Of a DNA stretch of 64,000 nucleotides, positions 27,593-63,317 are shown in pieces (position 1 is the stretch's first letter; every line of letters starts with the position of its first letter). The notes beneath the pieces were generated by a model. That model was not told the origin of the DNA, ran no database searches, and was given only the letters and a program-made list of their open reading frames with translations. This DNA comes from an uncultured archaeon (GTDB lineage: Archaea; Thermoplasmatota; Penumbrarchaeia; JASLWR01). The position numbers and the translations under genes are program-made. The stretch lies in the NCBI GenBank assembly GCA_964342815.1, contig CAYFHS010000003.1, forward strand, positions 32,001 to 96,000. The letters run 5' to 3'.

Positions 27593-27737
27593 ACTGAGAA
27601 GGTTGGATAAACACCTGGATCGAAGCCGTTCACACTGCACTGGCCGCTCTGAAGAACTTTTATGCAATAATATTAAATATTTGGTATTCATCTCTATTAG
27701 TACCATTAATAATATAAATTCTATTAGGAAGGGATTC

Positions 27738-30700
27738 ATGTTGAAATTGTATTCGATCGCAGTATTAATCACATTGCTTTTTCCCGGTATGGCGTTATTT
27801 ATAGCAATGGGGATAGAAGCACCTAGCGTGTGGACCGAGAATGGTTTTTCCAGCGGTACCGGGCGTAATGTTTACATCAACCCTCACGACGAGATACGGC
27901 TGGCAACCGTGGAAAAGGAGATCGAAGACGATCTTATGGACTCGAACGATATAAAGATAATTCAAAATCTTTCACACGACACGCAGGAGGGTAAGATCGA
28001 CGTTATCAAGACAGAGACTTTTCACGGCGGAGCGAATTCCGAATACGGTAAAAAGATACGTCCCACTACCGATGGAGGATACATAATTGTGGGGTCCACC
28101 GAATCCGAGGGTTCCGGTAACAGCGATGTCTGGCTCATTAAAACAGATGAAAATGGCGATAGGCTGTGGTCGAAGACCTTCGGTGGAAGCCAGTACGATT
28201 ACGGGAAGGATGTCAGGCAGACGGCTGACGGAGGATATGTGATAACTGGCAATACCTACTCGTACGGGAACGGCGGCCATGATGTTTGGCTTATACGGAC
28301 CGATGGTAACGGTGATCTGCTCTGGGAAGAGACTTATGGCGGCGGTGGAAACGAATACGGGGAAGGAGTTTGCGAAACAACGGACGGCAGTATAATTATC
28401 ACGGGATGCGATTACCACGGCGGGGACGATCCTTGGAGTGAATTATATATCATTAAGACCAATGCCCAGGGTAGTGTGCTATGGAGCAGCACTTATGGAA
28501 ATTGGGGAGACTTCAGTTGGGGCCTTTCGGTTATAGAGACGAAAGACGGACAGTATGCGGTGGTGGGTTTTACTGAATCGTACGGTAATGGTCGTAAAGA
28601 CATTTGGCTGTTAAAGTTCAATCAGAATGGAAACTTTAGATGGCACGGAACATATGGTGGAAGCGGTTTCGAGAGAGGTTTTTCGCTTCAGGAGACCGCT
28701 GACGAAGGTTTGATATTGGTAGGATATACCTCCTCGTATGGAAATGGAGGGAACGATGTCTGGCTCGTAAAAACGGACAAGAACGGCCAGGAGATGTGGA
28801 ACCGGGAGTATGGCGGTGAGAAGGATGATGAGGGTTACAGCGTAAGGGTAACTGCCGATGGAGGTTACATCATATCGGGCGGCACCTGGTCATCCGGGGC
28901 GGGGAACAGAGACGTGTGGATCATCAGGACCGACAATAATGGAATGAAATTATGGGACCGGACCTATGGAGGGGGCAGCACCGATTACAGTGAATCCATT
29001 GGCACGGCAGCCGACGGCGGTTACATGATCCTGGCTACATCATACTCCTTCGGGGCTGGGAAATACGATATCTGGTTGATAAGAACTGATAGCGCGGGGA
29101 CCTGCCAGTTCACCCAGGGGCTTCTTGTATCCACCAATCTTCTCGGATCGAGTGCCGCGTTCCTGGATAAGTTCGAATATTCCTGTTCGATACCCAATGG
29201 AACTCAGCTGCTGGCCAGTTTTTCCCAAGATAATATCACTTGGTATGATAGCGATGGAATTATCCACGGGAAAGACGGACTTACGGATGGAGCGTGGTGG
29301 CTGAATTTATCCGGGTTGAAGTGGAATACTTCTTCATTCTACTACAGAATAGAATTCCGCTCACCGAATTCCGAAAGTCCTGTTCTTAATAGTGTACGTG
29401 TGTTATACGGAGAATTTTATCCTTCGGGAGATTACGAATCGGCATTCTTCGATAACGATGAATATCTCATATCCTGGAAATGGCTCACCTGGACCGAAAC
29501 CCGACCTCCGAGCACACGGCTTGCCTTTCAACTTCGCAGCTCTCCGACCTTGGACGGAATTTCGGCTGAATCGTTTCTGGGACCGGACGGTAGTTCATCT
29601 TCGTACTACACAAACTCAGGAATGGACATCTGGGAAGGACATCATTACCACCGATGGCTGCAGTACAAGGTCTATCTTGAAACCGAAGATTTATCCACAA
29701 GTCCAGTGGTTGCCGATATCATGATCTCCTATAACGTGCTACCCAGGGTGGAAGTTGCAACTCCTGAAGGCGTTCAGAACGGAAATATCGAGATCGATTA
29801 TCTCCTCTATGACGGGGACTCGGATGATATTGACATCATTGTACAGTATCGTATCGGATATTCTTCTTATCGGGAAGCCACCCTCGCAGCCGGGAGCGAA
29901 GGGACCGATGGTCTATTTTCCAAACCTGGAGGTGTGCAGCATTCGTTCATTTGGGACTCATCAAGCGACCTCGGGAAGGTTGATGAGGATAATGTCTTCA
30001 TAAAGATCACTCCATCGGACGAGGAAACCGGCACACCATCCACCACTGTGAGGTTCACCGTGGATAACAAAGCACCGGATTTCATCTCAATCTTCCCAAC
30101 GGATCACGTAAATTCGAGAAAGGTAAAGATTGTGGTGGAGACAGATGAGAATGCTTTGATGAGATGGAGCGAGGCAAATCAGAGCTATGAGCTTATGACA
30201 AACCAGTTCACGGAGGGAGAGGGCGAAACAAGGCATACCGTAACTGTAAATGCCCGGGAGGGGATAAACACTATTTATGTTAGTGCCACGGATTCCTTTG
30301 AAAATTCCCAGACCTACGGAACCCATATCGAATTTACAGTTGATACGAAAGCACCTGAGAACATAACAATATTGATCAACAACGGTAACAAGTATACGAA
30401 TTCAACATGGGTCACCATAACTATTATAGACACCAGAGCGGCCTTGGACGCATACGAGATAAGAATGAGCAATGACCAGGATTTTCCCGATGTCCCTTGG
30501 GATTCCTTCACAAGTACAGACACATCTGACGGTGTGTCAAACTGGACAAGTAGTGACTTGTCAAGCGAGCGCATGTGGAACCTCACTCCCGTAGACGGGC
30601 GCAAAGCGGTATATGTGGAACTGAAAGATGAAGGTGGAAACGTGGCATTATTCCAGGGAAGCATCATACTGGATACCACACCACCCATATTTCTGGTCAC

Positions 30701-31928
30701 AGGTCCCGATACCGAGCAGGACTCATTGATGGTGAATATAACCGTTACCACCAACGAGGAAGCCTTTCTCCGCTGGTCGTCAGTGGATGTCGGTTATTAT
30801 TCTATGACGAATCTATTCGAAAAGGGAGAAGGGACTGCCATCCATTCCACATTGGTCAATGCATCCAACGGAAACAACACTTTGTTCATTTCCGCCTTGG
30901 ATCTTAACGGAAACGCAATGTCGTCGGGGATAGCTCTCAACTTCAGGGTAAACGCCAAGAACGGAGGTGATGGTTCGGGGAAAGGCGATGGAGAAAACCA
31001 GAGTGAGGGGAGTGGAATCAACTGGAAATGCTGGATAATCGTTCTGATAATCCTAAATCTGATACTGTTCATTATTTTGGTCATTAACAGAAGGCGAAAA
31101 AAACTTGCGGAAAAAAAGGATGCCGAGGAACCCCGACGGGTTCGGAAAGAGGCGCTGCTGGCATCGCTTCATGCGGGAGGAACTCCTGCAATTTCGGGAG
31201 GCGATTCCACCGATTTCAGCTACAATGTTCAGGCACCTCCGTCGTATACGGTTGGAAAAACGTACCTTCCACCAGTACAACAGGGTATCCTGCCTCGAGT
31301 CGCTTCCTCATCGGCACCGCAGCCCCCGTCTGCAGCGGAGGTAGAAGCGAGATATGCAGCGCAAGCAGGCCCGAGCGTTTCCGGTGCTACTGCAATCGTA
31401 CCTATCGATAAACCAGCGGTGATCGCAGCAAGTGCTCCTGCCAAGCAGGTCACCGCCCCCCCAAGCCCGCAACCAATGATCGCAGCAAAAACCCCCGAGG
31501 TTCCAAAAGAACTGGAAGACGTGTGGAATTTCGCGAAAACACCCCCCCCGGACACCAAAAAGGTCACGCCCTGGGCAGGGGTGTCAGCCGGGCGGCCCGG
31601 AGAAAGTCCATACGATAAAAGTACCCTAAATGAGAGTGGAAAACGGAAGGAAGCTACCCCGGACCTGAGCTCGCTGCTTTCGGAGCTTAGAAAGGATATC
31701 CCCACCCGCAAATCCCCGGTGGAAAGCCCAAGCCCCGCTGCATCCCCACCAAAAGTCAAAGCAAAGGTCGGAAGATATGCAGACAAGATATCTCACAGTA
31801 TAGATTTCATTCTGGACAAGTACGAAGAGAAGGAAGAAGAAACGGAGGAGAAAAGTAACAAGAAACCGCTGGCGAGCATCCCTATAAGGAGGATAGCCAT
31901 CACAAGGAGGAGAAATACGAAATTTTGA
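27738..31928 (+). CDS. large single-pass cell-surface protein: signal peptide, 7 x ~52-aa Gly/Trp propeller repeats, beta-sandwich/Ig-like domains, TM helix, Pro/Ala-rich cytoplasmic tail
   Basis: Hydrophobic N-terminus MLKLYSIAVLITLLFPG. Seven T[YF]GG...DGGYI..G.T.S.G.G..DVWLIKTD.NG..W repeats (about 28017-29105). TM WIIVLIILNLILFIILVIN followed by RRRKK. Confidence 0.88.
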   Translation: MLKLYSIAVLITLLFPGMALFIAMGIEAPSVWTENGFSSGTGRNVYINPHDEIRLATVEKEIEDDLMDSNDIKIIQNLSHDTQEGKIDVIKTETFHGGANSEYGKKIRPTTDGGYIIVGSTESEGSGNSDVWLIKTDENGDRLWSKTFGGSQYDYGKDVRQTADGGYVITGNTYSYGNGGHDVWLIRTDGNGDLLWEETYGGGGNEYGEGVCETTDGSIIITGCDYHGGDDPWSELYIIKTNAQGSVLWSSTYGNWGDFSWGLSVIETKDGQYAVVGFTESYGNGRKDIWLLKFNQNGNFRWHGTYGGSGFERGFSLQETADEGLILVGYTSSYGNGGNDVWLVKTDKNGQEMWNREYGGEKDDEGYSVRVTADGGYIISGGTWSSGAGNRDVWIIRTDNNGMKLWDRTYGGGSTDYSESIGTAADGGYMILATSYSFGAGKYDIWLIRTDSAGTCQFTQGLLVSTNLLGSSAAFLDKFEYSCSIPNGTQLLASFSQDNITWYDSDGIIHGKDGLTDGAWWLNLSGLKWNTSSFYYRIEFRSPNSESPVLNSVRVLYGEFYPSGDYESAFFDNDEYLISWKWLTWTETRPPSTRLAFQLRSSPTLDGISAESFLGPDGSSSSYYTNSGMDIWEGHHYHRWLQYKVYLETEDLSTSPVVADIMISYNVLPRVEVATPEGVQNGNIEIDYLLYDGDSDDIDIIVQYRIGYSSYREATLAAGSEGTDGLFSKPGGVQHSFIWDSSSDLGKVDEDNVFIKITPSDEETGTPSTTVRFTVDNKAPDFISIFPTDHVNSRKVKIVVETDENALMRWSEANQSYELMTNQFTEGEGETRHTVTVNAREGINTIYVSATDSFENSQTYGTHIEFTVDTKAPENITILINNGNKYTNSTWVTITIIDTRAALDAYEIRMSNDQDFPDVPWDSFTSTDTSDGVSNWTSSDLSSERMWNLTPVDGRKAVYVELKDEGGNVALFQGSIILDTTPPIFLVTGPDTEQDSLMVNITVTTNEEAFLRWSSVDVGYYSMTNLFEKGEGTAIHSTLVNASNGNNTLFISALDLNGNAMSSGIALNFRVNAKNGGDGSGKGDGENQSEGSGINWKCWIIVLIILNLILFIILVINRRRKKLAEKKDAEEPRRVRKEALLASLHAGGTPAISGGDSTDFSYNVQAPPSYTVGKTYLPPVQQGILPRVASSSAPQPPSAAEVEARYAAQAGPSVSGATAIVPIDKPAVIAASAPAKQVTAPPSPQPMIAAKTPEVPKELEDVWNFAKTPPPDTKKVTPWAGVSAGRPGESPYDKSTLNESGKRKEATPDLSSLLSELRKDIPTRKSPVESPSPAASPPKVKAKVGRYADKISHSIDFILDKYEEKEEETEEKSNKKPLASIPIRRIAITRRRNTKF

Positions 31929-32172
31929 TAATATCAGCACGCTCATAGAACTGGTTCCTCAAAGGAAACCCTGGAGCATCTAGTACGGATTTATTAATCC
32001 TGCGCAATCATGGCCAGTGAGCTAAAGTGAGTGGATTTGTTCCCACGGGGATGGTTCCACCTGCTGTAAAATATGATAAATGCTGGTGAAATAAGGTGAA
32101 TCTATATATATCATAAATGGAATTAAACGGCCAATAATGTCTCTAAATATATCTTTATAGGAAGTGGAGTTA

Positions 32173-35100
32173 ATGATTGTATTTGGTAAGAATAGAACTA
32201 TTTCGTGCCTTATTTGCGGAATAATAATGTTAATTGCAGCGTTTTCGGGAATGGTAAATGCCGAATCCCCGGAAGACGAGATACGGATGGAAGTAAAAAT
32301 TGATATTGACTCCCATCATGCCCTCAAGAACGAAAATATGATGAGCTTATCGGGATTGAAGAACTCAGTTCCCAATGGAATGGGGGACCTTGATCCCCTG
32401 GCTCCCCTTGCGCGCGGTAGAGGAGGGTGGTCCATTGCCGAGAAATGGAACAACAAAACACTATTGAATAATACCATTTTCGATATTGCCACCGGCGACC
32501 TTAACGGCGATGGATACGCGGATCTGGCCGTTGTGGGCGAGAATCATACCATTGCAACCTATCACAACAATCATTCATTCGGTTTCAGAAAACATTTCGT
32601 GGACATAGACAATAACAAGAACTACAGCCGTGTGGCGCTCGGTGACGTCGATAATGACGGAGACCTAGATATGATGACGGCAACCTGGCCGAATCCGGTG
32701 CAAAACCCCACTTCCCTGGACCTTTATCTGTATGAGAACAAGGGAGCCGGGAATTTCATCGGTGGAGGCGGAGTCCACAAAGTGGATGTGGGAGCTGCGG
32801 CGACATACGGATTTCTATTTACAATAACCTTAAGGTCCGGAGATTTCAACAACGACGGAAAAGCGGACTTCGTCCTGGGTATAAGCCATAACCATCCGAA
32901 CCACGTTGGTGACGGTAATCCCGCCAGAGCAACTATCTTTTTCCTTTTGAACAACGGTGCCGGCGGATATGCGTCAACCTCAACAACGATTGATACTTCT
33001 AACAATCAATGGGGCGTGCTCTGGATTGCTGCCATCCAGGCAAAAGAAGCCACCGGCGATAATTTCGACGACGTTGTGTTGAGCATTTACGGCTATAACG
33101 AATATCAGGTAAGTTATTATCCGGGCGAGATAAGGGTCTACAAAGGGGGCGCACAGGGAATAGTACTTCCCAATGCCCACTGGAGCTACCAGTACAACCA
33201 AAACGATGAATGGACCTTCACGGTTGACGTGGGCGAGTTCACCGGTGACGGTAATCCCGATATATTGATATCCACCGATGCAGAGAACCAAAACGGAGAC
33301 TGGGTTGACGGGAAAGTTTGGCTTGCCACGGGGCAGGGGGCTCAGGGATATGTAAACCCGGTTGCAAAGTTCACGGTACAGGGTCAAGGAACCGGTTTTT
33401 CTATGAACGTATACAATTTCGACGATGAAGACAGGGACGATTTCGTTCTGGGATACAGCTGGGACACGAACGCGGATGACATCATCGATCGATGGGAGTT
33501 GAGGATATACACCATAAACAATCAGGGAGCTTTCGCCCTGAAATGGTCCGACAACACAGGCCCGCAGGGTACCCTCAAAGGCAAGGTCGGTCGTATCTGG
33601 GCAGACGATTTCGACAACAGCGGTGCGGGAGATGTCCTCTATTCCGGGGAAGACCTGCGACTGCTTGACGTGAGAACCGGGTACGAGCCGGATAATATCC
33701 CTCCGGCTGCCATAATCGACCTCGGCGTTGCTCAACCTCAGGGCATGCAAAGCGATACGGTCCGGCTTGCGTGGAGCGCTCCGGGGGACGATGATAAAAC
33801 CGGGGGCCCGCCGGCATATTACATTGTCCATTATGCGGATTTCGCAATCAATATTGGTAACTTCAATACTACCACCAATGCATCAAATGCACCAAAACCC
33901 GCAGGCCCCGGCAACACCGAAACTTTCCAGATAGATAAACTCGAATCCTCAACTACTTACTATTTCGCCGTTCGCACTGTGGACGACGCCGGGAACTGGG
34001 CACCATTATCCAACGTGGTAAGCTTCGGGATACCTGATTTTGTGGTGCCGGACGGCATAAACGATCTGGCAGCTTCGTTCATTTCCGAAGACGGGGAGAT
34101 AGAACTTAGCTGGACCGCTCCGGGGGATGACGGAGATACCGGTACGGTGAACTCCTATCTCGTTGGATTTTCTGATACAAACATCGTAGACTTCGAAACA
34201 GTTACAAAGATAACCGCCGGGCTGCCGACACCACAGGCAGCAGGTGCTGCCGAGTCAATGAGGATCGATATCAACAGCACTGCGGGTCTGGATTTCGACG
34301 AGACAAACTATTATGCCGTGATAGCCAAGGACGAAGCGGATAACGAGGGAGAACTCTCCAACGTGGTTTCGGTCAAGCTTCCGGACATCACATCTCCAGA
34401 CGCGGCCTCTCTTTCTGCGGTACCCGGCGACAACGACGGAGAGATCAAAATAATCTGGCAGGCCACAGGGGACGACGGTACCGATGGGAAAGCGGATTCC
34501 TACGAGATGCGTTATTCCTCCACGGTTTTCACCGCCGACGCTTATGACAGCGCTGCCTTGGTCACCGGGCTGCCGGCTCCCGGCAATACCGGAACTTCGG
34601 AAGAGTTCGTAATGACGGGGCTGGATGGTGGGACCACCTATTATTTCGCTTTGAAGGTTTTCGACGACGCCCTGAACCCTTCGGCCGTGTCCAACGTGGT
34701 TTCCGCAGTGGCAACGGACGCCACGGCACCAGACAAGATAAGCGGTATAGAACTCGCAGATACCCTCGATGACAACGGCGGATCCCTGACCGTGACCTGG
34801 ACCATATCCGCTGCCCCCGATTTTGAGAGTTACAGGATATACGTTTCAAAGTCCGAAATCATAACACCCGACCAGGATGACATGATCCATGAGATCGATG
34901 ACATAAATACCAGTATATACAATTTCACCAAGGTGGACGGAAAAAAGCTTGTTGACGGAACCGAGTACTATGTGGGGATAACGGCAGTGGATACAACGGG
35001 TAACGAGGGAGTTCCGGGTACGGGTGCCAAAGCCAGCCCGAAGGATGACCTAGAACCCAAGATCCTCTATTTCCAGCCTTCGAAGAGCTCCTTGAAACTT

Positions 35101-36492
35101 GAGGCCGACAGCGAGCAAACTTTCAACATCACCGCAGAATTCTTTGACGATGAAACACGGAAAATACAGTGGTACGAAGACGATGACAAAATAAGGCAGC
35201 AAACTAAAAGTATTCTAATATACGAGGTTCCCTCGGAGATAGGGGATACCTTTAGCATAAAGGTGGAACTGGACGACGGTACCAGCAAGGCGGAGCACAG
35301 CTGGGACATTGAGGTGGTGGACGCTGGTCAGGGGGATGTAGGTGACGATGACGACACCGAAGATGATGACACTGAAGATGATGATGCAACTGGAGATGAC
35401 GACACCGAGGACGATGATACGGCCGGGGACGACGATACCACCGGAGATGATGATAACGATGATGATGACGGAACCGATTTCTGGACCGATAAGATCGATA
35501 TTGACGGCGACGGTCTGGACGACCGATGGGAGAAATTCTATTTCGGCGATACGGACTCTCAGGGTCGAACTGGAAATCCCGACAAGGATAAATACAACAA
35601 TGTTCAGGAATATCTGAAGAAAACCGATCCCACCAAGAATGACGATCCGCGAGCAGGCGACCCCACTGCGAACACTGGTGAAATAAGCAGCGTAAAAGAC
35701 GATAACAACTGGTTGTGGATTGCCATCGGATCAGGCATATTCTTACTGATTTTGGTGATTGTGGTCCTCCTTCTGATCATCTCGAGAAGATCCAAAAGAA
35801 GAAGAGAGGAAGAGGACGTGGTGCCAACACCTGTGGAAATACCCCAAAAGGACCTGGAGGCGGAGGAACTGTACGGACGGGTCACGCCATCCGAAGACGG
35901 TCCAACCGTGACCATCTCGTCCATGGAGGAAGACGCAGGAGACGAGGAAAGTATAGAGGTGGATCGGGATGCAATGGAATCTTTCTTTTCCGCGGTGGAC
36001 GATTCCGAGCAGCCAGCCCTTCTTCCATCGGCGGGGCCATTCGAGGGGACCTTGGGACCAGGACTATTTGCCAGCATGAATGAGGAAAATGAAGAGGAAT
36101 CCTTGAAGGACCTCACCCGTGACATCCTTGCGGAAAAGACTCCGAAAGAAGAGAAATCCCTTTCACTGGATTCACTTTTCTCACCTATTATGGATGCCGA
36201 TGGGGAGGACGAGGAAGAATTGATAAGCGAACTGGCTCCCATGGAATCCGAGGGATTCGGAGACAAGTTCCTTGATGATCTTCTCACACTGGTTCCCTTC
36301 GAAGATGAAGATATGAAGACCATTGAGCCAGAGCAAGAAACCGCCGGGATCGACGAGACCTCCACGGAAAGCGAAGAAGTTCCCCTGGAAGTTGCATGCT
36401 ACAACTGCAATAACAGTATACCGATCTACACGGATGAAAGACCGTTGATAATCACCTGTTCCGAATGCGGCGCGCAGGGCGAGATCGAATAG
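32173..36492 (+). CDS. large single-pass cell-surface protein: signal peptide, 7 FG-GAP-like repeats, 4 FN3 domains, acidic linker, TSP3-like motif, TM, acidic tail, C-terminal zinc ribbon
   Basis: GGAG precedes ATG 32173. GD[LVF]N/DxDGxxD repeats. FN3-like W-x-APGDD...YYFAV..D.AGN...SN units. TM WLWIAIGSGIFLLILVIVVLLLII followed by SRRSKRRR. Ends CYNC-x16-CSEC. Confidence 0.9.
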   Translation: MIVFGKNRTISCLICGIIMLIAAFSGMVNAESPEDEIRMEVKIDIDSHHALKNENMMSLSGLKNSVPNGMGDLDPLAPLARGRGGWSIAEKWNNKTLLNNTIFDIATGDLNGDGYADLAVVGENHTIATYHNNHSFGFRKHFVDIDNNKNYSRVALGDVDNDGDLDMMTATWPNPVQNPTSLDLYLYENKGAGNFIGGGGVHKVDVGAAATYGFLFTITLRSGDFNNDGKADFVLGISHNHPNHVGDGNPARATIFFLLNNGAGGYASTSTTIDTSNNQWGVLWIAAIQAKEATGDNFDDVVLSIYGYNEYQVSYYPGEIRVYKGGAQGIVLPNAHWSYQYNQNDEWTFTVDVGEFTGDGNPDILISTDAENQNGDWVDGKVWLATGQGAQGYVNPVAKFTVQGQGTGFSMNVYNFDDEDRDDFVLGYSWDTNADDIIDRWELRIYTINNQGAFALKWSDNTGPQGTLKGKVGRIWADDFDNSGAGDVLYSGEDLRLLDVRTGYEPDNIPPAAIIDLGVAQPQGMQSDTVRLAWSAPGDDDKTGGPPAYYIVHYADFAINIGNFNTTTNASNAPKPAGPGNTETFQIDKLESSTTYYFAVRTVDDAGNWAPLSNVVSFGIPDFVVPDGINDLAASFISEDGEIELSWTAPGDDGDTGTVNSYLVGFSDTNIVDFETVTKITAGLPTPQAAGAAESMRIDINSTAGLDFDETNYYAVIAKDEADNEGELSNVVSVKLPDITSPDAASLSAVPGDNDGEIKIIWQATGDDGTDGKADSYEMRYSSTVFTADAYDSAALVTGLPAPGNTGTSEEFVMTGLDGGTTYYFALKVFDDALNPSAVSNVVSAVATDATAPDKISGIELADTLDDNGGSLTVTWTISAAPDFESYRIYVSKSEIITPDQDDMIHEIDDINTSIYNFTKVDGKKLVDGTEYYVGITAVDTTGNEGVPGTGAKASPKDDLEPKILYFQPSKSSLKLEADSEQTFNITAEFFDDETRKIQWYEDDDKIRQQTKSILIYEVPSEIGDTFSIKVELDDGTSKAEHSWDIEVVDAGQGDVGDDDDTEDDDTEDDDATGDDDTEDDDTAGDDDTTGDDDNDDDDGTDFWTDKIDIDGDGLDDRWEKFYFGDTDSQGRTGNPDKDKYNNVQEYLKKTDPTKNDDPRAGDPTANTGEISSVKDDNNWLWIAIGSGIFLLILVIVVLLLIISRRSKRRREEEDVVPTPVEIPQKDLEAEELYGRVTPSEDGPTVTISSMEEDAGDEESIEVDRDAMESFFSAVDDSEQPALLPSAGPFEGTLGPGLFASMNEENEEESLKDLTRDILAEKTPKEEKSLSLDSLFSPIMDADGEDEEELISELAPMESEGFGDKFLDDLLTLVPFEDEDMKTIEPEQETAGIDETSTESEEVPLEVACYNCNNSIPIYTDERPLIITCSECGAQGEIE
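35341..35472 (+). repeat. low-complexity acidic DDD[TA] peptide repeat (GDDDDTEDDDTEDDDATGDDDTEDDDTAGDDDTTGDDDNDDDDG)
   Basis: Seen directly. Synonymous codons differ between units. Confidence 0.9.
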
Positions 36493-54235: not shown

Positions 54236-57200
54236 TTATTCCGAGAGGTATCCTTTTTCATGGCATACCGGGCATTCTATTATAACTGGTCTCGTGCTGT
54301 CCGTGACCTCATAACCGGTCCCACATGCGTGACATTGTACCCGGGTACCGACATCCCCCGAAGCCGACTCTTCTGTGGATGGAGCTGAGGCATCCGGTAA
54401 TGGAGAATCAGGAGGTGCCGGTGGGGATGAAGGAGGAATGGATGGCAATGGAGAATCGAGAGGCGCCTGAGTTGGTGAAGACAATACCTCCGGGCTTGGT
54501 GATGCAGGGGGTGTTTCTGGTGGGATACCTGAAATTACTTCCGGAGAGGACATTTCTAACGGCGAAACCAGATCGCCGCCCTGAGATGATGGCGCTGGCA
54601 GAGGGGGCTCCCCAGGTATGTCGAACAAGGCATTCAGCGGAGAATCGGGGATTTCAGAGGAGAGAGGATTTAGGGGACCCGGTACGGGTGCCATGGGCAA
54701 CATCGGATCGTTCACGGTATCCGGAAACGGAACCTTGTCCTCCGATGCCGGCGGAAGAGCCAAATGGTTCATGTCCTGCATGCCCTGATCGGTTGAAAAG
54801 GAAGGAAGAAGATACCCCGGCTCATTTGGAGTATATGCGGCTTGTGAGGTGGCAGGCAAAGGGGGAAATGACGGGGCTGAAGGTTGTTGGTTCCAAGGTC
54901 CGCTGGGACCTGATTGAGGTGTGGTTCCGGGAACTATACCGGCGGAAGCCATTGAAGCAGGATACTGCCCGTATGGGGGACTGCGTCCACCGTAAATCCC
55001 TCCGTAACCTGCTGTATCTATCCGGTCGTATCCGCCAGGCGCAGCATTCAAATTCTGGCCCTGAGAGTAAGGGTGAAAGGGTGCTGGAGGAGGCACCTGA
55101 GCCGCTTTTTTCTGTTCCTTTTCCTTTCCTTTTTTCCTGATGGCGACCAGGACTACGACAATTAATAAAATCAATACGATAACTCCAATTATCACAAACA
55201 GCCACCAGTATTGCGCTAGCAAACTATCTTCAGCAACAGAACTAGCCTTCCTATCACTCACCTGCTGATGGTAATCGCCCACCATTTCAGGCGTGGCATC
55301 ACTGGCGTCATTCGGGTCGAGACCGTTTATGGTTTCCCACCAGTCGGGCAGCTCATCCCCATCGCTGTCAGTGGTATCGTCCCATCGCTCTTCGGCTTCT
55401 TTCGCTGTAGGTTTAGCTTTAATCTCAATATCCAGCTTCAGGCTTTCGTTAAAACCATGACCGTCATCCACATAGAGATAAACCTGATATTTTCCCGGCT
55501 GGTCGATGGTCGCCTGGGTACTCATCCCGCTGCCCGTGAAAACTGTCTTTTTGCTGGTCTTGCCCTTTATCTCCCAGTAGTAGCTCAGCTCATCGCCCTC
55601 AAGGTCCTCGGTCCCGGTAGCGTTCAGATGAATTGAGGAGCCTTGTTCGAACATTGAATCATCGGCGGGCCTTTCTATAACCGGAACCGGAGGAGAGTTT
55701 ATTCTTATCTTCGCCGGTTCTGAAAAGGTATAGTCATTACCAACTGCATCCTTGGCACGCCATTTGATATAATTATCACTGCCAGCTTCAAAGCGTACGT
55801 TGATCATCACTTCAATAAGCTCGTTCACCATCGTGTTACCAATAGAAGTCCAGTTGACGAAATATTTGTCCTCGCCACCCCAAGTCGATACTGAGTGCTC
55901 AATGGATTTCCCATCCACTCCACTGCCTTCGATGTCCAAGAAGGTTATCCCGCAAAGAATGCCTCCATCCGCCGCCTCGTCTACCGGGAACAGCTCGTCC
56001 TCTCCGGGGATGATATCTCTGGCTGTAACAGGTGTCTGATCCACTCTGATCGACCGTTTTTCGCTTACTGCAGGTCCGTTTCCCGCAAGATCATTAACAC
56101 GCCATTTCACGGCATTCCCACTACCCTCGTTCACCAGTAGATCCGTCCAGGCACGTACCTTTAGGGCATTATCGTCCGAGTCGGTTTCCAGAACCTCGAA
56201 TTTCATATCATTATCCGTCCACGGGGCAAAGGTGCTTTCGCCGTCTTTCCGCGCCGAGTAAGCGATTGTGCCTATATCCAGACCGTATATATCCTCGCAT
56301 ACGAAACTGGAACCAACCTTCGTCACGTTGAACCATTGATCCGCACCGGGAGAAAGGTCCGAAATAAACGGGTCCGCCGAATCTATATTAAAGAGAAAAT
56401 GAGTTGCGTTGCCCCATTGGTCATATATATCACAGGAAGTGATGTGAAAATACCAAGTGCCATCCGTCAAACCCGCAAACTCACCTGGATATGTTCCGGT
56501 CAGATCGCTGTTTTGGGTGTAAAGGACCTTCGTGGGTTCTGTGAGAGGCGAACTGTCCACCAAGTAGGAATATCCCTTTATTCCGGATATCTCAAACGGC
56601 AGTTCCCAGTTAAAAACGGGCAGCGTACTGTTGTAGTACCTAAGAGGATCGGGGTGTGTCGGGGAGCTAAGGACAATATCTCCCGGTGCCTTGAAGTCTA
56701 GATATATCGAATCGTTATACACATCCGAAATTATTCCCGCATGATCCTTGAACCTAACACCAATGGTCTTTAGACCGTCAAGAGGAGTAAGAGCAATCCG
56801 TTTTCCTGTCTTGTATTCTTCCCAGGGTCCCTCATCTCCCCTATCACTGATTATCTGCATATCGACAACCCCGCTCCCGTTATCCGTGGCATTTATTGAA
56901 AGGTCCACTAGCTTTTCATTTACGGAAAGCACATCCTCTTCTATGGTGATATTACCCACCGGTTTGGTCACGTCGATCATGAACTTTTTCATTACTGAAT
57001 AATTGCTCGCTGCATGGTAGCTGTCCTTGGTGCGCACCCTCCAGTAATAAATTCCATCGCTCAGGGGTTCCTCAATTGTATGTTCGCTAAAAGTAGAGTT
57101 TACGAAGGAAGTGTTATACCGAAGATTTTCGAGGTTCTCATTGTCGTAGATCTCCACCAGATAATCCGATTGTTGATCCCCTTTATCAGGATCGGTAAAG

Positions 57201-58582
57201 TTCCATCTCAGGATCGGCGTACTATTTCCCTGCCATTTACCGGAAGCAGGGGCGTATGGAACGGGATCCGCAATCAGGTCGTATTCGATAATAACCTTGT
57301 CGATATATGGGCTCGTTTCATTGTCATTGGTGGTAAGGGTAGCATTCCAGATCAAGCACGAGCCGCGATTCTTGAAAACGTGATTGGTCCCGTTCTCCAT
57401 GGTCACCCAATTTTTACCATCCACGGTCATATTATACACAATGTCAGTTCCTTGGGGTTTGTGTTCGAACCATGTGATCCTTGCTGCGCCTATGGTGGGT
57501 AATTTCTGGTAAAGCGGTTTCGACTGGAGAAATGATACATAATCAAGGCCGCCGGTACCGCCGAAGTTATAAGCAAGGTTATCGATGGTCCATGTGGTGT
57601 CCGGGTTATTCCCCGCATTCCCGTTTGTCATGATGAGGCTGTTCCCGAAATAATCGTAGTTGAAGCAGGTCAGATAATCGAAACCGTTCATGCAGACATC
57701 GTTGTAATTCTGCACATTTCCGGAGTCTCCATCCAGGCGATGGTTCATATTCCCTGCGGAGTAACCCACCGGATAGAAATAATGTCCCGCCGAAAAACAG
57801 GTCCCCATACTTCTCTGCTGTTCTGGTATGTTCACAGATCGAAGGAGGTTCTCGTTCATATCATAAACCCTCACGGTGTTACCACTGTAAGTGTAGATAT
57901 ACTCTCCATCGGTTGTAAGACCGCACTGGTTACCGCCACCCCAACGCCATGAAGTGGAACCGGCAGCGCTCATTGAGCAAGGAACCTTAGATTTATCCGA
58001 AAGGCGGAGCTTGTCAACAGTATTGGAATTGGAAAAGTACAGGTGGCCGTTCGCATAAATCATCTGGTAATAGCTGTGGGGATTGAAAGGCAGGTTGAAA
58101 CTATCGATGGTATTTCCATTGTTCATGAAGGAATTCAGGGATGCGTAGACGCTAATTTGATTGGATCCTCGCGAGGACCGTACGTAGAATTTCCCATCTT
58201 GACCAACCGCCCTGCCCGTGAACCTGGTAAACCGCCGGGTCCGGTCGGCATTGGAAACGTCCCTGATGTCAGAGCGAGGATTCGAACCTGAGCCAGGTAG
58301 ATAAGCCCTCCCCGTATATGTGTTCACGATGGAAGTAGTATTGGAAACGTCGATGCTGGTGAAGTTGTTAAAATCTTCAATGATCACACTTCCGTATCGG
58401 TTTTTTTCAAAGTCCTTCAAGGGTTCTTTGTTTACCGTTACCGCTGTCGATCCGTTCCCTTTGATGGATGCAGTTTCTTCCATGGAAAGGAAAAAGTTGT
58501 TTGAAAAAAACAGAAGCGCAACTGCAAGTCCAATAACTGAAAGCTTGATTCGGTTACCTTTCGAAGAGTTTATTCCGAACAT
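54236..58582 (-). CDS. large single-pass cell-surface protein: signal peptide, olfactomedin-like propeller, Ig/FN3/PKD-like domains, TSP3-like motif, TM, Pro-rich tail, C-terminal zinc ribbon
   Basis: Hydrophobic N-terminus. P.LRWNF.DPD..D.Q..Y and DG.YYWRVR FN3-like unit. DPEGD-like PKD unit. DSDGDELPDWWE. TM WWLFVIIGVIVLILLIVVVLVAI followed by RKKGKEK. Ends CHAC-x16-CPVC. Confidence 0.9.
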   Translation of the reverse strand: MFGINSSKGNRIKLSVIGLAVALLFFSNNFFLSMEETASIKGNGSTAVTVNKEPLKDFEKNRYGSVIIEDFNNFTSIDVSNTTSIVNTYTGRAYLPGSGSNPRSDIRDVSNADRTRRFTRFTGRAVGQDGKFYVRSSRGSNQISVYASLNSFMNNGNTIDSFNLPFNPHSYYQMIYANGHLYFSNSNTVDKLRLSDKSKVPCSMSAAGSTSWRWGGGNQCGLTTDGEYIYTYSGNTVRVYDMNENLLRSVNIPEQQRSMGTCFSAGHYFYPVGYSAGNMNHRLDGDSGNVQNYNDVCMNGFDYLTCFNYDYFGNSLIMTNGNAGNNPDTTWTIDNLAYNFGGTGGLDYVSFLQSKPLYQKLPTIGAARITWFEHKPQGTDIVYNMTVDGKNWVTMENGTNHVFKNRGSCLIWNATLTTNDNETSPYIDKVIIEYDLIADPVPYAPASGKWQGNSTPILRWNFTDPDKGDQQSDYLVEIYDNENLENLRYNTSFVNSTFSEHTIEEPLSDGIYYWRVRTKDSYHAASNYSVMKKFMIDVTKPVGNITIEEDVLSVNEKLVDLSINATDNGSGVVDMQIISDRGDEGPWEEYKTGKRIALTPLDGLKTIGVRFKDHAGIISDVYNDSIYLDFKAPGDIVLSSPTHPDPLRYYNSTLPVFNWELPFEISGIKGYSYLVDSSPLTEPTKVLYTQNSDLTGTYPGEFAGLTDGTWYFHITSCDIYDQWGNATHFLFNIDSADPFISDLSPGADQWFNVTKVGSSFVCEDIYGLDIGTIAYSARKDGESTFAPWTDNDMKFEVLETDSDDNALKVRAWTDLLVNEGSGNAVKWRVNDLAGNGPAVSEKRSIRVDQTPVTARDIIPGEDELFPVDEAADGGILCGITFLDIEGSGVDGKSIEHSVSTWGGEDKYFVNWTSIGNTMVNELIEVMINVRFEAGSDNYIKWRAKDAVGNDYTFSEPAKIRINSPPVPVIERPADDSMFEQGSSIHLNATGTEDLEGDELSYYWEIKGKTSKKTVFTGSGMSTQATIDQPGKYQVYLYVDDGHGFNESLKLDIEIKAKPTAKEAEERWDDTTDSDGDELPDWWETINGLDPNDASDATPEMVGDYHQQVSDRKASSVAEDSLLAQYWWLFVIIGVIVLILLIVVVLVAIRKKGKEKEQKKAAQVPPPAPFHPYSQGQNLNAAPGGYDRIDTAGYGGIYGGRSPPYGQYPASMASAGIVPGTTPQSGPSGPWNQQPSAPSFPPLPATSQAAYTPNEPGYLLPSFSTDQGMQDMNHLALPPASEDKVPFPDTVNDPMLPMAPVPGPLNPLSSEIPDSPLNALFDIPGEPPLPAPSSQGGDLVSPLEMSSPEVISGIPPETPPASPSPEVLSSPTQAPLDSPLPSIPPSSPPAPPDSPLPDASAPSTEESASGDVGTRVQCHACGTGYEVTDSTRPVIIECPVCHEKGYLSE

Positions 58583-58790: not shown

Positions 58791-60401
58791 ATGAAGTACG
58801 CCAAGCTATGGAAGACGATGACGATAATTATTTTGCTGGGTTTGCTGCTGATAGTTGGAGGATTCTTCACCAGTGGAATGACTCGCCTAGAGCTGATCGG
58901 TGCGGGAGCAGCATGCATAATTGGGGTCTTGGTGCGACGGACATGGATAAGTTGTGTGATTGGTCTTTTTGCCGGGGGGGTCATTGGATACTTTTTCGAA
59001 GTTACGGACAACAAATCCATTGGAATAGTCATAATGTGTATATCGGTAGGTGTAACGGCGGGAGCGGTCGGAGCAATTATTGGGTATTGGGCCAATAAGA
59101 TAAAGAGCAAAACGGAAAAATCACTTGTGAACTTGCAAAAGGACATTGAGCAAACCCGAAAAGAAGCTCTAAGAAAGATCGAAATTGTTGAAAATACCAT
59201 AAAAAGAACCGGCCCATACCATCGGGATAGCGGGCATTATAATACGGAGATCCGTTATGTACAGGATCAGGTTAAAAACATTCGTTACTACTCCGGAAAC
59301 GCCCGATCCATAGAAGATGCAAACTTTCAATACAGTGAAATAATCAGCTACCTTGACCGGATCATGGAAAAGATCGACCCTTACAGCACCTCTACGGCCT
59401 GGGCCATAGATGAAAAAAAGTATGAGAATCCGTACGGGGAAAACGTTGATAGAAAAAAGGATAAGAGTGAGGAAAACACAGATAAAAAAGAAAAAAAGCC
59501 GAAAGAATTGATTCTTATCAGACCATCGAAAGGCTACATTCCTTCGCTGCGATCCCCAAAGGGCGAAGCCGTGAAACCACGGATATCCCGGGCCCTGCCT
59601 AATTACAGCATAAAAAAGCAAATCGACTCGAACGATTTTGCAGATATTTTCTCGGGAGAATCGGAAGATGGCAAGGATGTAATTATAAAAATCCCCCGAA
59701 TAGAACGGAAGAAAAGCGGAAATATAGGCATAATGGCAGAGTTTTTATCCTATGCAGATCAATGGGACCACCTTAAAGATGATAAAATCGTAAAGATATA
59801 CGGAAGAGATGTGCGTCCGGCGTTCCATATTGTCATGGAAAGAATGGAGGGGGGGGACTTAAAAGCGCTTATGAAAATCCATAAACTTTCACTGGAAGAG
59901 ACGGTCCATATCATGCTTAACGTACTAAAAGGAGTGTGCTCGGCTCACGAGAAGGGCGCGGTACACGGCAATCTGAAACCTACTAATATCCTTTTCCGAA
60001 AAAACGGTGATTTAAAGATAGGGGACTGGGGTTGGGAAGAATTCCAGAAAACGACGAATCCTGGTAGGTTCTGCGCGGATAAATGCATACAGGGATACTG
60101 CGCCCCCGAACATTTGGAACCCAAAGAATTCGGCAAGGTAGATGAGGCTACTGACCAGTTCCAGCTGGGAATTATATTTTACGAAATGCTAACGGGTATT
60201 AAGCCGTTCGTTGATGAGGATAAAGAGCGTACTGCTCATAACATTATTGAGCAAGAAATCGACCCACCCAGCTATTTGAACCATTCAGTACCGGATGAGC
60301 TTGACGAGTTAATATTGAAGGCAGTGGAAAAAAGAAAAGAAACAAGGTGGGGAAGCACGAAGCTTATGTACGATGAACTGAATAAACTCGTGGAGAGCTG
60401 A
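58791..60401 (+). CDS. membrane-anchored Hanks-type Ser/Thr kinase-like protein, probably a pseudokinase
   Basis: About 4 N-terminal TM segments. Kinase motifs VIIK, MERMEGGDL, HGNLKPTNIL, DWG, APE and DQFQLGIIFYEMLTG. Confidence 0.85.
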   Translation: MKYAKLWKTMTIIILLGLLLIVGGFFTSGMTRLELIGAGAACIIGVLVRRTWISCVIGLFAGGVIGYFFEVTDNKSIGIVIMCISVGVTAGAVGAIIGYWANKIKSKTEKSLVNLQKDIEQTRKEALRKIEIVENTIKRTGPYHRDSGHYNTEIRYVQDQVKNIRYYSGNARSIEDANFQYSEIISYLDRIMEKIDPYSTSTAWAIDEKKYENPYGENVDRKKDKSEENTDKKEKKPKELILIRPSKGYIPSLRSPKGEAVKPRISRALPNYSIKKQIDSNDFADIFSGESEDGKDVIIKIPRIERKKSGNIGIMAEFLSYADQWDHLKDDKIVKIYGRDVRPAFHIVMERMEGGDLKALMKIHKLSLEETVHIMLNVLKGVCSAHEKGAVHGNLKPTNILFRKNGDLKIGDWGWEEFQKTTNPGRFCADKCIQGYCAPEHLEPKEFGKVDEATDQFQLGIIFYEMLTGIKPFVDEDKERTAHNIIEQEIDPPSYLNHSVPDELDELILKAVEKRKETRWGSTKLMYDELNKLVES

Positions 60402-60506: not shown

Positions 60507-63317
60507 TTGAGCATTAAACTATCCGGCAAGGAGAAGATCCTGCTGTGGCTTTTGAGGTTCGTCCCGAGGAAGGGAGATTACATTCAACCCCTGGAAGTAT
60601 CGCAAAAGGGAATCTCCAAGGGTCTAAACATTCTACAGACCAACGTTTCCAGAGAGCTGTCGTCACTGCGGAAGGAAGGATTAATAGATCGGGAATCGAC
60701 CCATTTCCGGGGGACAAAACGGAAAATGACCGCATACTACCTCAGGCCGGATGGCATGAATGTGACAGGGGAGATCACAAAAAAAGTGAACGAGTCAGTG
60801 GTTTCCTTTCGCCTTAAGGGAAAAATTGAGGAAATGCAGGTCTCGAGGATCAGATCGTTACTCAAGGAAAAAGGAGGGAGGCCGTCGGTTTTTGCTGTTG
60901 CAACATGTTTTGAAAATATGGAAACCGTCATTACCCTGCATGAAATGATGGAAAGAATATCCATCATTCAGCGACCCGTCGAACAGACGAGGGAAGTGAG
61001 GAAAGAACACCGCCGCCACCTGGATGGAATTATCGCCGAGGGCGAATTCATCGGTCGAAAGAATGTTACTGATAATATCAAGGAAATATTGGTTAAACCC
61101 GGTTTCCAGGCGATAGGGATCATGGGTGTCGCCGGAATGGGCAAGAGCGCCCTGGGCCGCGAGGTGATAAAATACGCAAAGGGCGATTTCAATATATTCT
61201 ATTATCGTTTTCGCAGGTGGGATCGTTTCGATTCGCTGGGAGTAGAGGTTCTGGGCTATCTTGGAAAAAAGGGTATGCCGGATGGAGACCGCTTGATCCG
61301 ATCGCTAATTGATTTCTGTTCCGGAAACAACTTATTGATGGTACTTGACGATGTACATTTAGTTAAAGATGACATGTATGATTTCCTCGATGATCTTGTC
61401 GTCTACTCGGACAGGCTTTGCGGAATGAAACTCATTTTACTGTCCAGGAAAAAAGGGCAGATGGAGAGATACACTTCCGCCAAACACGGAGGGAAGACCA
61501 CGGAGATAATACTGGAACCTTTTAAAGCTGCGGAGTGCAGTGAACTGGCCTCCCTCGTCGGTTACGGGGAACGAGGAATGGTGGACCGGGAGACCGCAGA
61601 AAAGATACGGGATGCCACCGGGGGTATCCCGCTTCTTGTGGAACTGCTCCACAGGGAGGAGATCGTGACGGGAAAGATCACCACCAAAGGTACTGGGATG
61701 ATAGAAAAAGAGATATTGAAGAACATGGAAGAAAAAAGTGCCGTAATATTGAAGATGTTCTCGCTCTGCACGCTTCCTGTTGAAAAAGACCTAATGAAGA
61801 ACAGCGAGATATACGTGTCTGAGTTGACGGAGCGGCTTCTTCTCGAGAGAACTACCGAAGGACTATATCAGGTGCACGACCATATCAGGGACGTGATCCG
61901 AAAGGAGTTGGGTTTCAGAGAAAGAAAGAAGCTTACCAAGAGCATAATAGAATACCTCAAGGATGTACTGAAAAGGAGTGCGGAGGGAGATTATCTCCCA
62001 ATCCCCATGAGAGAAGACCTTGAGTTATATTTTCTTGAGTACATTCACCATAACATAGAAATTGGCGAGATCGAAAAGGGTCTAAGAGCCATCAACGAAA
62101 TGCCTGATAGGATAACGGATAGTCCGTTCCAAGAGGTTCTCGGGGAATTTCTTCGCCGCATGGAATTAAAATTGGGCGGGAAAAACGCCGTGATCGAGCT
62201 ATTGCGTACCGAGATGGCTCTCGATAGGGACGATATAGAGGGAGCAAGAGAGCATTACAAAACAGCCAGGGAAGTGCATCAATCGGAGCAGAAGAAGAGA
62301 ATTGGGGGGGATAAAGGAATCTTCTTGACCGATGAAGATCTTCAGCAGGTAGCAGTGCGGATGGAGCTTATCGATAAAGGACCGGGTAAACTGAAATCAA
62401 TGTTGGAAAAGGCAGAACATGACGGCAGTCTTGCAGACAAGGTTCGTATCGGCATGGCCATCGCTTCAGAATTTGCTCGTGCAAATGAAAAACGGAAGGC
62501 CGAGAAATGGCTTATGAAGACCGCTGATACGATTGTCGAGCTTCCGGCTGAAAAGAGGGCGGGATTCCATTTCCAGGCAGGCGTCATATACAACAAGTTA
62601 AATGACATGGAGGAAGCAGAGCGCTCCACCAGGGAAGGATTGAAGACGGTATCGGCCGATGACAGCGGCATGCAGGGATCTCTAAACAAACTGCTGGGTC
62701 AGATCCATTTCCGCAAGGGAAACTACGGTAAGGGCGAGGAAAAGTTCAATCGTGCTAAGATGTTTTTCAGACGGACCGATTCGATTTTCCAGCAGGCCGA
62801 TTCTATGCTATGGGAAGTGAAATCCATACTCGCCCGCTCAGGGATTCTCACGAAAGCAATGACCATCTCCTTCCTTGATAGGGAGCGATCTTCCAGAAAG
62901 ACCCGAAGCGCAATTGACGACTGCATCACCCGGATCAGGGAGGCACTTCTGATACTGGGAGGCAGTACAAGGAAGACAGGAGCGCTGTCGAGGTTGCTGG
63001 GAAGGGAGATTTTCGATGAACGTAACGTGTCGCTCTGGCGGCAGCTCCTGGTTTTACGGGGTTCTCTCGAATGGCTCGGGGCTTACACCGAATTCGCTGC
63101 GGAAACAGCTGGCGACATCATCCTACTGGGGAAAAAAACCAGAAAAACGGATATAGTACTGGAAGGGTCGATAATAAAGGCCAGGATACTTTCGCAGATG
63201 AAACGAAAGAAGGAGGCCCGGAGCATACTAGAAGAACTTATGAGCAAGAAAACGATCCCGGACGGTCCCAAAAGAAACGCTTTGAGTTATACGCTGCGTC
63301 TCATTAAGAAAAAGTAA
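60507..63317 (+). CDS. winged-helix / STAND (NB-ARC-like) P-loop NTPase / TPR-like protein
   Basis: AGGTGA Shine-Dalgarno with TTG start. N-terminal HTH (SQKGIS..L.I.QTNVSREL..L..EGLI), Walker A GVAGMGKS, Walker B LMVLDD, GGIPL motif and C-terminal helical repeats. Confidence 0.85.
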   Translation: MSIKLSGKEKILLWLLRFVPRKGDYIQPLEVSQKGISKGLNILQTNVSRELSSLRKEGLIDRESTHFRGTKRKMTAYYLRPDGMNVTGEITKKVNESVVSFRLKGKIEEMQVSRIRSLLKEKGGRPSVFAVATCFENMETVITLHEMMERISIIQRPVEQTREVRKEHRRHLDGIIAEGEFIGRKNVTDNIKEILVKPGFQAIGIMGVAGMGKSALGREVIKYAKGDFNIFYYRFRRWDRFDSLGVEVLGYLGKKGMPDGDRLIRSLIDFCSGNNLLMVLDDVHLVKDDMYDFLDDLVVYSDRLCGMKLILLSRKKGQMERYTSAKHGGKTTEIILEPFKAAECSELASLVGYGERGMVDRETAEKIRDATGGIPLLVELLHREEIVTGKITTKGTGMIEKEILKNMEEKSAVILKMFSLCTLPVEKDLMKNSEIYVSELTERLLLERTTEGLYQVHDHIRDVIRKELGFRERKKLTKSIIEYLKDVLKRSAEGDYLPIPMREDLELYFLEYIHHNIEIGEIEKGLRAINEMPDRITDSPFQEVLGEFLRRMELKLGGKNAVIELLRTEMALDRDDIEGAREHYKTAREVHQSEQKKRIGGDKGIFLTDEDLQQVAVRMELIDKGPGKLKSMLEKAEHDGSLADKVRIGMAIASEFARANEKRKAEKWLMKTADTIVELPAEKRAGFHFQAGVIYNKLNDMEEAERSTREGLKTVSADDSGMQGSLNKLLGQIHFRKGNYGKGEEKFNRAKMFFRRTDSIFQQADSMLWEVKSILARSGILTKAMTISFLDRERSSRKTRSAIDDCITRIREALLILGGSTRKTGALSRLLGREIFDERNVSLWRQLLVLRGSLEWLGAYTEFAAETAGDIILLGKKTRKTDIVLEGSIIKARILSQMKRKKEARSILEELMSKKTIPDGPKRNALSYTLRLIKKK

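Follow-up and report, generated by a model that had tools for sequence, protein, structure and literature searches.

A predicted olfactomedin-type β-propeller head on a stalked surface protein of an uncultured archaeon

The 64,000-nucleotide window analysed here (positions 32,001 to 96,000 of contig CAYFHS010000003.1, from an uncultured archaeon of the phylum Thermoplasmatota) encodes on its minus strand a 1448-residue protein, designated P0001 in our searches, which carries a β-propeller close to its N-terminus. An initial annotation, made from the letters alone, had pointed to an apparent olfactomedin-like (OLF) domain at 57600-58290, i.e., residues ~98-328. A predicted five-bladed propeller whose best structural matches are all olfactomedins, together with significant profile links via intermediates, bears this out. 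We propose with considerable confidence that residues ~103-339 are a diverged but true OLF homolog without a calcium site, which forms the outer tip of a stalk protein and most likely acts as its binding head.

The fold was predicted by running AlphaFold2 template-free on an alignment of the 11 heads of the family (termed A1), which yielded a model with a pLDDT of 79.4, a pTM of 0.83, and 21 strands arranged in roughly five four-stranded blades. In a Foldseek search of the PDB, the top ~49 entries were all olfactomedin domains (olfactomedin-1, myocilin, latrophilin, and gliomedin; E 4e-12 to 3e-9, TM-score 0.59-0.72); the structural check suggested in the initial annotation, a five-bladed propeller with olfactomedin structures as its top matches, was thus in its favor. 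Comparison with 48,161 representative chains using VIA-align placed the OLF chains at Z 21.3-23.1 (rmsd 2.7-3.2, 223-232 residues aligned), whereas the best non-OLF folds were bacterial glutaminyl cyclase (Z 15.0), YjiK (Z 14.4), and the NHL and Kelch propellers (Z ~12-13). Likewise, eight of the ten rows returned by a shape search of the ESM Atlas were eukaryotic clusters of PF02191, the Pfam counterpart of the SMART OLF domain SM00284 (TM-score 0.73-0.78), the first clearly different fold being YncE (TM-score 0.57). As modeled, the head encoded in the window is predicted to be a five-bladed β-propeller of the OLF type. It has in common with the animal OLF domains of olfactomedin-1/noelin (6qm3, 4xat, 5amo), latrophilin-1/3 (6ska, 5afb, 4rmk), myocilin (4wxq), and gliomedin (4d77) the blade number and size (Z 21-23, TM-score about 0.59-0.78), a placement at the extracellular end of a modular protein, as predicted from sequence for the archaeal one, and a co-linear series of motifs. 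These comprise aromatic-x-Y...F(M/I), LP, G-x-LYF, S-x-TV, AG, and W-GG, followed by D-x-G-x-(Y/W)-(I/V)-(I/Y)-(Y/T), F-x(3)-G-x(2)-Y-x-V, and Y-(D/N)-x(3,4)-N-x-L.

The strings on which the initial annotation had relied (QISVYASLNSFM, FNLP, IYANGHLYF, SNTV, WRWGG, LTTDG, QRSMGTCF, FNYD, and NSL) are all present in the order it gave, at residues 142-316 and within 57600-58290, and the olfactomedin resemblance in the register that it proposed is beyond chance by the profile comparisons described below. Direct searches with the head missed this relationship, which was exposed by profiles and structure only. A scan of 1.8 billion cluster representatives recovered a small head family, namely P0017, P0018, and P0019 (40-44% identity), P0007 (48%), and P0020 (36%); two further candidates from the representative search, P0025 and P0028, were rejected as relatives, being FN3 and WD40 repeat proteins with spurious matches. 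The heads of P0017, P0018, and P0019 are 37-40% identical to that of the window's protein (blastp E 1e-48 to 1e-53), and these three of the 11 A1 members pass the gathering cut-off of the Pfam OLF model (23.9 bits) at 26.6, 28.3, and 33.2 bits, with matches spanning positions 25-238 of its 246. The A1 profile in turn retrieves the latrophilin-1/3 OLF chains from the PDB (E 0.003-0.008, positions 47-229), and in hhalign it matches the canonical archaeal OLF heads, a set of more typical versions, with a Prob of 96.7 and an E of 4e-10 over 192 columns at 28% identity (E 5.5e-7 for the P0001-type subgroup alone). The canonical heads themselves are linked to the vertebrate myocilins by a profile search (E 6e-26, 33-35% identity) and by hhalign (E 1.7e-24).

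Several observations weigh against this reading. The HMMER check proposed in the initial annotation fails: the Pfam OLF model gives no match for the head, or anywhere in the window's protein, even at E<=10, a six-frame PF02191 scan of the genome did not flag the window locus, and a phmmer search of the PDB with residues 60-400 found no OLF. Aligned directly with myocilin in hhalign, A1 gives a weak match (E 0.007, Prob 5%), though one in the same register. A second AlphaFold2 model covering residues 55-455 is of low confidence (pLDDT 62, below 50 in the segment preceding the head). The homology is therefore carried by the intermediates and the predicted structure (11 sequences only), because Pfam is silent and the direct myocilin match is weak. 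Two structural signatures are also missing. The intradomain disulfide of myocilin, Cys245-Cys433, is not conserved: the Cys433 position is a Gly in an AGH stretch of the window's head, and the Cys245 region lies outside the alignment. The Asp-Asn-Asp calcium triad is likewise absent, as mapped from myocilin Asp380, Asn428, and Asp478 through the hhalign alignments:

Window's protein: Asp380 is replaced by Gly221, Asn428 by Thr261, Asp478 by Asn308
P0017-type head: Asp380 is replaced by Gly, Asn428 by Thr, Asp478 by Ser
Canonical archaeal OLF: Asp380 is replaced by Asn, Asn428 by Trp, Asp478 by Ser

The profile alignments and this mapping agree with the earlier proposal that the acidic calcium ligands are substituted ('DIDL becomes QCGL'). 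As the triad is Gly/Thr/Asn, the internal calcium site of the window's head has probably been lost. However, an internal Ca2+ site is found in only some OLF domains, and engineered triad variants of them still fold (PMC6719662); such variants (6ou0-3 and 6pkd-f) are among the Foldseek matches of the head model. The loss of the site is therefore no argument against an OLF fold. In sum, the fold is positive, the profiles are positive through intermediates, and the direct Pfam match is negative. The contrary outcome named at the outset, namely no significant profile match combined with a non-olfactomedin fold, is not what we observe, and the olfactomedin interpretation therefore stands. On the strength of the model and alignments, we regard the OLF fold and homology of the head as very probable.

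A more generic alternative, which we consider quite improbable, is that the head is a five-bladed propeller of the glutaminyl-cyclase, YjiK, or NHL kind that converged on the OLF shape, with motif matches that are merely propeller-typical. Propeller structures matching the model at Z >= 8 run into the hundreds, and a language-model feature search of the ESM Atlas returned generic propeller or viral clusters only, with scores at chance level (<=0.82); the Pfam silence and the weak direct match to myocilin point the same way. Against this, the OLF chains stand 6-8 Z units above every other fold, the curated Pfam OLF cut-off is passed by 3/11 family members over nearly the whole model, and the co-linear motifs fall within the 192-column hhalign match to the canonical OLF heads. 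The nearest of these other folds, bacterial glutaminyl cyclase (3mbr, 3nok) and the YjiK C-terminal domain (3qqz), have the same blade number and a similar size (Z 13-15) but score ~8 Z units lower than the OLF match and lack a sequence or profile link to the head. That the head is instead an enzyme acting on surface or environmental substrates, e.g., a bacterial-type glutaminyl cyclase or a glycosidase-like propeller, is hardly credible: glutaminyl cyclases, which are enzymes, do provide the best non-OLF structure matches (Z 15.0 and 13.3) and GH43-type propellers reach Z ~11-12, but Pfam and profile searches give no similarity to either family, OLF domains are nearest by every measure and have, to our knowledge, no enzyme activity, and the central metal-site triad is gone.

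Around this OLF-type propeller, the window's protein has the following organization:

54236..58582, minus strand: whole gene, 1448 aa, stop-free in the open reading frame (ORF) list and translation; its parts are, in order, an N-terminal signal or anchor, head, neck, Ig-like stalk, transmembrane helix, Pro-rich tail, and Zn ribbon
58484..58546, minus strand: N-terminal hydrophobic segment in the translation (aa 13-33), a likely signal peptide or anchor
58298..58399, minus strand: pre-head segment (aa 62-95), kept even in paralogs with unrelated heads
57566..58276, minus strand: predicted olfactomedin-type five-bladed β-propeller head (aa ~103-339), from the AlphaFold2 model, structure matches, and hhalign
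57263..57529, minus strand: neck β-sandwich (aa 352-440), common to paralogs with other heads, from tblastn and the strands of the second model
55283..57232, minus strand: Ig-like/PKD stalk (aa 451-1100) with 15 N-glycosylation sequons, from Pfam and a sequon count
55139..55210, minus strand: transmembrane helix (aa 1125-1148), read from the sequence, with the basic stretch RKKGKEKEQKK after it
54746..54811, minus strand: conserved short motif in the Pro-rich, predicted cytoplasmic tail, LPSFSTDQGMQDMNHLALPPA, with near-identical motifs in paralogs
54239..54340, minus strand: C-terminal CxxC-x17-CxxC zinc ribbon, the same ending being found on at least 19 large ORFs of the genome

In the stalk, Pfam detects an Ig_Rha78A_N domain (aa 453-534) at 26.8 bits, just below its cut-off of 27.4, and a PKD domain (aa 967-1047); a TSP3-like D-x-D-G-D motif (aa 1072-1092) closes it. 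The Pro-rich tail spans ~265 residues, and the ribbon region gives weak Pfam zinc-ribbon matches. The positive-inside rule suggests that the C-terminus is cytoplasmic and, together with the signal-like N-terminus and the sequons (22 in the ectodomain vs 0 in the tail), that the ectodomain faces outward; the protein would thus be of type I, with an ectodomain of ~1090 residues and a single transmembrane helix. This layout fits the earlier suggestion that the domain is displayed on a receptor-like stalk. Full-length orthologs with 69-95% identity are present in Thermoplasmatota metagenome-assembled genomes (MAGs). The arrangement differs from that of the animal proteins: the archaeal head is placed N-terminally, ahead of an Ig-like stalk, a transmembrane helix, and a zinc-ribbon tail, whereas in the animal proteins a coiled coil or lectin domain precedes the OLF; further, the archaeal head falls below the Pfam threshold, has a Gly/Thr/Asn triad, and carries a Gly at the Cys433 position.

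The same chassis bears other heads elsewhere in the genome. By tblastn and ORF listing, the 4.35-Mb genome encodes at least 19 large single-pass proteins with the same C-terminal zinc ribbon, among them a tandem array of seven genes at C10:49-79 kb, whose neck and stalk are 54-76% identical to those of the window's protein, and one of eight genes at C1:139-176 kb, which includes the canonical OLF head. The paralog heads include Endostatin/DUF1554, Laminin_G_3, and OLF domains, weak NIDO and PQQ_2 matches, and many versions without a Pfam match. The window's protein belongs to this head-on-stalk family, all of its pre-head, neck, Ig-like stalk, transmembrane helix, tail motif, and CxxC...CxxC ribbon being common to it. 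It has these parts in common with the C10 and C1 array proteins but differs from them in that the array members mostly carry other heads and its own gene stands alone. By tblastn, its neck is 54-76% identical to nine other loci of the same genome, and paralog stalks are 56-62% identical to its own. The pre-head segment is 43-66% identical to those of P0008, P0009, P0013, and P0014, proteins whose heads are only 16-19% identical to that of P0001.

Within this family, A1-type heads occur at two loci only in the genome (tblastn), the window and C1:338.5 kb, and the six-frame PF02191 scan also recovers two loci, both outside the window. The genes and heads concerned are as follows:

C1:170376-171011: canonical OLF head, in a 1444-aa ORF, 143.8-145.6 bits with Pfam OLF
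G000:C1:166938-171269 (loci L001, L011): gene of the canonical OLF head
C1:338598-339161: head of the P0017-type paralog, 29.8 bits with PF02191
G000:C1:335172-339551 (loci L002, L015): gene of the P0017-type head

The genome thus harbors three old OLF-type heads: the canonical one, the P0017-type one that is barely over the cut-off, and the Pfam-missed copy in the window. The canonical paralog matches the window's protein in its head-stalk-transmembrane-Pro-rich tail-Zn ribbon design, its homologous head, and its lack of the triad, but is set apart by its strong Pfam OLF score and by a stalk subfamily that is only ~30% identical. The P0017-type sister paralog is closer (neck and stalk 56-59% identical, beside the 37-40% of the head), and it just passes the Pfam OLF cut-off that the window's copy fails.

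Further features of the family were noted. The tail motif has the consensus (L)P-x-F-x-T-(D/E)-Q-G-x-Q-D-(L/M)-N-x-(L/M)-ALPP, lies in an otherwise disordered Pro-rich tail, and recurs across stalk subfamilies and genera (P0009, P0011, P0017, P0027, and the upstream gene at L001), making it a candidate docking site. The best-defined non-OLF heads are an Endostatin/DUF1554 domain (69 bits; L009, G000:C10:66229-70386), a Laminin_G_3 domain (73 bits; L010, C1:139521-143852), and a weak NIDO match (L014, C2:313784-318088); these, too, are domains familiar mainly from the extracellular matrix proteins of animals. Two genes of the seven-gene array (G000:C10:70585-78706) have shortened ORFs of 971 and 1173 aa, and a neck match in this array is split across frames near 78536-78551; judging from these sequences, the shortened genes could be pseudogenes or assembly errors. 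In the window itself, a giant 7277-aa ORF (1290-23123, minus strand) has the stalk proteins' type of CxxC...CxxC zinc ribbon (LTCPKC...VCPYC) at its C-terminus, which indicates that the ribbon tags very different surface proteins. Two more single-pass surface proteins of ~1440 aa are encoded at 27603-31928 and 32164-36492 (both plus strand): in one, which lacks the ribbon and has a basic C-terminus, ~48-aa propeller-type repeats recur about ten times in tandem; the other, with an acidic tail and the zinc ribbon, has FN3-like repeats and a head resembling FG-GAP.

The conservation and glycosylation patterns set the head apart from the rest of the window's protein. The head is its most conserved region across orthologs (94/83/73/71% identity, vs 81/79/47/53% for the stalk and 23-55% for the tail). 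It contains 31 Asn and not a single N-x-S/T sequon, vs 5.3 expected by shuffling (P about 0.003), while the ectodomain outside it has 22 sequons vs 7.6 expected. Sequons are absent from 9/11 head-family members, a count in which the members, being related, are not independent trials, with the pattern persisting at 37-40% identity. A conserved tip free of sequons, carried by a stalk rich in them, would fit a binding head. We accordingly picture the propeller at the membrane-distal end of the protein, mounted on the glycosylated neck and Ig-like/PKD stalk, where it would serve as a glycan-free ligand-binding or adhesion head in the manner of OLF domains in animal extracellular proteins. As indicated by the PDB titles among the Foldseek matches (6jbu, 6ska, 9nr6), latrophilin has FLRT and teneurin as binding partners, and noelin the N-terminal domains of AMPA receptors; given that animal OLF domains bind macromolecules, the archaeal propeller may do so as well, its ligand being a protein or a surface polymer borne by particles or other cells. 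Through the tail motif and zinc ribbon, the protein could be tied to a cytoplasmic partner and binding coupled to it; the multigene family as a whole mounts unrelated heads on common stalks. We consider this binding function of the propeller reasonably likely.

The phyletic spread of these heads is narrow. PF02191 is detected in 4/401 genomes of the phylum Thermoplasmatota, all in one family, and 401 Bacteroidota genomes yielded two marginal partial matches, one just over the cut-off (model positions 28-105); in the 14 control genomes, no match reaches the cut-off. Among 37 genomes of the class, A1-type heads are found in 4/4 genomes of the window's family, plus one genome of another family. 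In each of the four family genomes, the P0001 type and the P0017 type are represented by exactly one copy apiece, and in two genera (G083, G170) and in one MAG contig these copies are tandem neighbors. The window's protein has 1:1 orthologs in the four genomes, which represent three genera, plus other MAGs, and the named records of its close relatives are marine MAGs (e.g., ETNP2_MAG_1 and isolates from SRP077602). A search of viral contigs found no relative.

This rarity of OLF among the sampled prokaryotes (4/401 Thermoplasmatota, 1/401 Bacteroidota over the cut-off, and 0/14 controls), together with the 33-35% identity of the canonical copy to vertebrate myocilins, could be taken to mean that the OLF-type heads were recently captured from an animal or reflect eukaryotic contamination of the assembly. 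We give this explanation very little credence: the gene is surrounded by archaeal ones such as MetRS on a contig of 170 kb, its head is joined in one protein to the stalk and Zn-ribbon tail that mark the family, its 1:1 orthologs span several genera, and where the head aligns with myocilin the two are just ~24-29% identical, all of which argues for a long residence in archaea.

Three observations made alongside concern relatives outside the family's usual setting. The head of P0007, likewise archaeal and 46-48% identical, sits on a different stalk, with a Big_7 domain over the cut-off and weak matches to cadherin-like Ig domains. Row 6 of the ESM Atlas shape search is a bacterial (Pseudomonadota) cluster annotated Cadherin_4/Big_9, with a TM-score of 0.75 to the head model; the pairing in P0007 is comparable to this cluster, which, as far as the models go, hints at unannotated OLF-like propellers in bacteria. 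P0020 (from a 2.9-kb contig, Logan SRR15144438) is a 468-aa protein without a Pfam match that combines an A1-type head at 36% identity with Ala-rich C-terminal repeats; these look dockerin-like, and the protein may be bacterial.

The gene in the window is a singleton outside any array, beside MetRS and a membrane kinase-like gene, and no operon logic emerged among its neighbors, which further include genes for a STAND NTPase, a PHP protein, and an HhH-GPD protein. The kinase-like gene (58791-60401, plus strand) is divergently transcribed, and its membrane-protein product contains a Pkinase domain scoring 113 bits; next to it lies a gene (60507-63317, plus strand) for a 936-aa STAND-type protein combining an HTH, an NB-ARC/AAA domain, and TPR repeats. 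The pairing with the kinase-like neighbor recurs only in the closest MAG (L016, 70% identity) and hence offers no evidence of a functional link.

Olfactomedins have been described as proteins "found in multicellular organisms" (PMC6719662, PMC4488277), and reviews on teneurins and latrophilins have speculated on prokaryotic origins of that system (PMC6510184). Our full-text literature search turned up no publication dealing with an OLF domain in archaea or other prokaryotes. Public precomputed Pfam labels mark the canonical archaeal proteins as PF02191, and since these labels sit on those alone, only the canonical copies are visible to the databases. The archaeal lineage thus expands the known sequence space of the OLF fold, because it includes copies missed by standard domain searches. 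As natural calcium-free, disulfide-free propellers, the archaeal heads also bear on folding and stability work relevant to myocilin glaucoma. The combination of a strongly conserved, glycan-free head with a glycan-rich stalk and a Zn-ribbon tail, as read from sequence, further suggests that uncultured marine Thermoplasmatota have surface receptors or adhesins of a so far undescribed archaeal class. A bolder scenario, which we regard as possible though unlikely, is that the olfactomedin propeller is not an animal invention and belonged to an earlier prokaryotic repertoire of surface binding modules (OLF, LamG, endostatin/C-type-lectin-like, NIDO, and FG-GAP) displayed by marine archaea on receptor-like stalks; the animal OLF domains would then descend from, or have been anciently exchanged with, such heads, and the three archaeal OLF types, deeply diverged at about 28% mutual identity, would be remnants of this repertoire. 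With a resident archaeal OLF lineage at hand, the origin of this "animal" adhesion module becomes testable.

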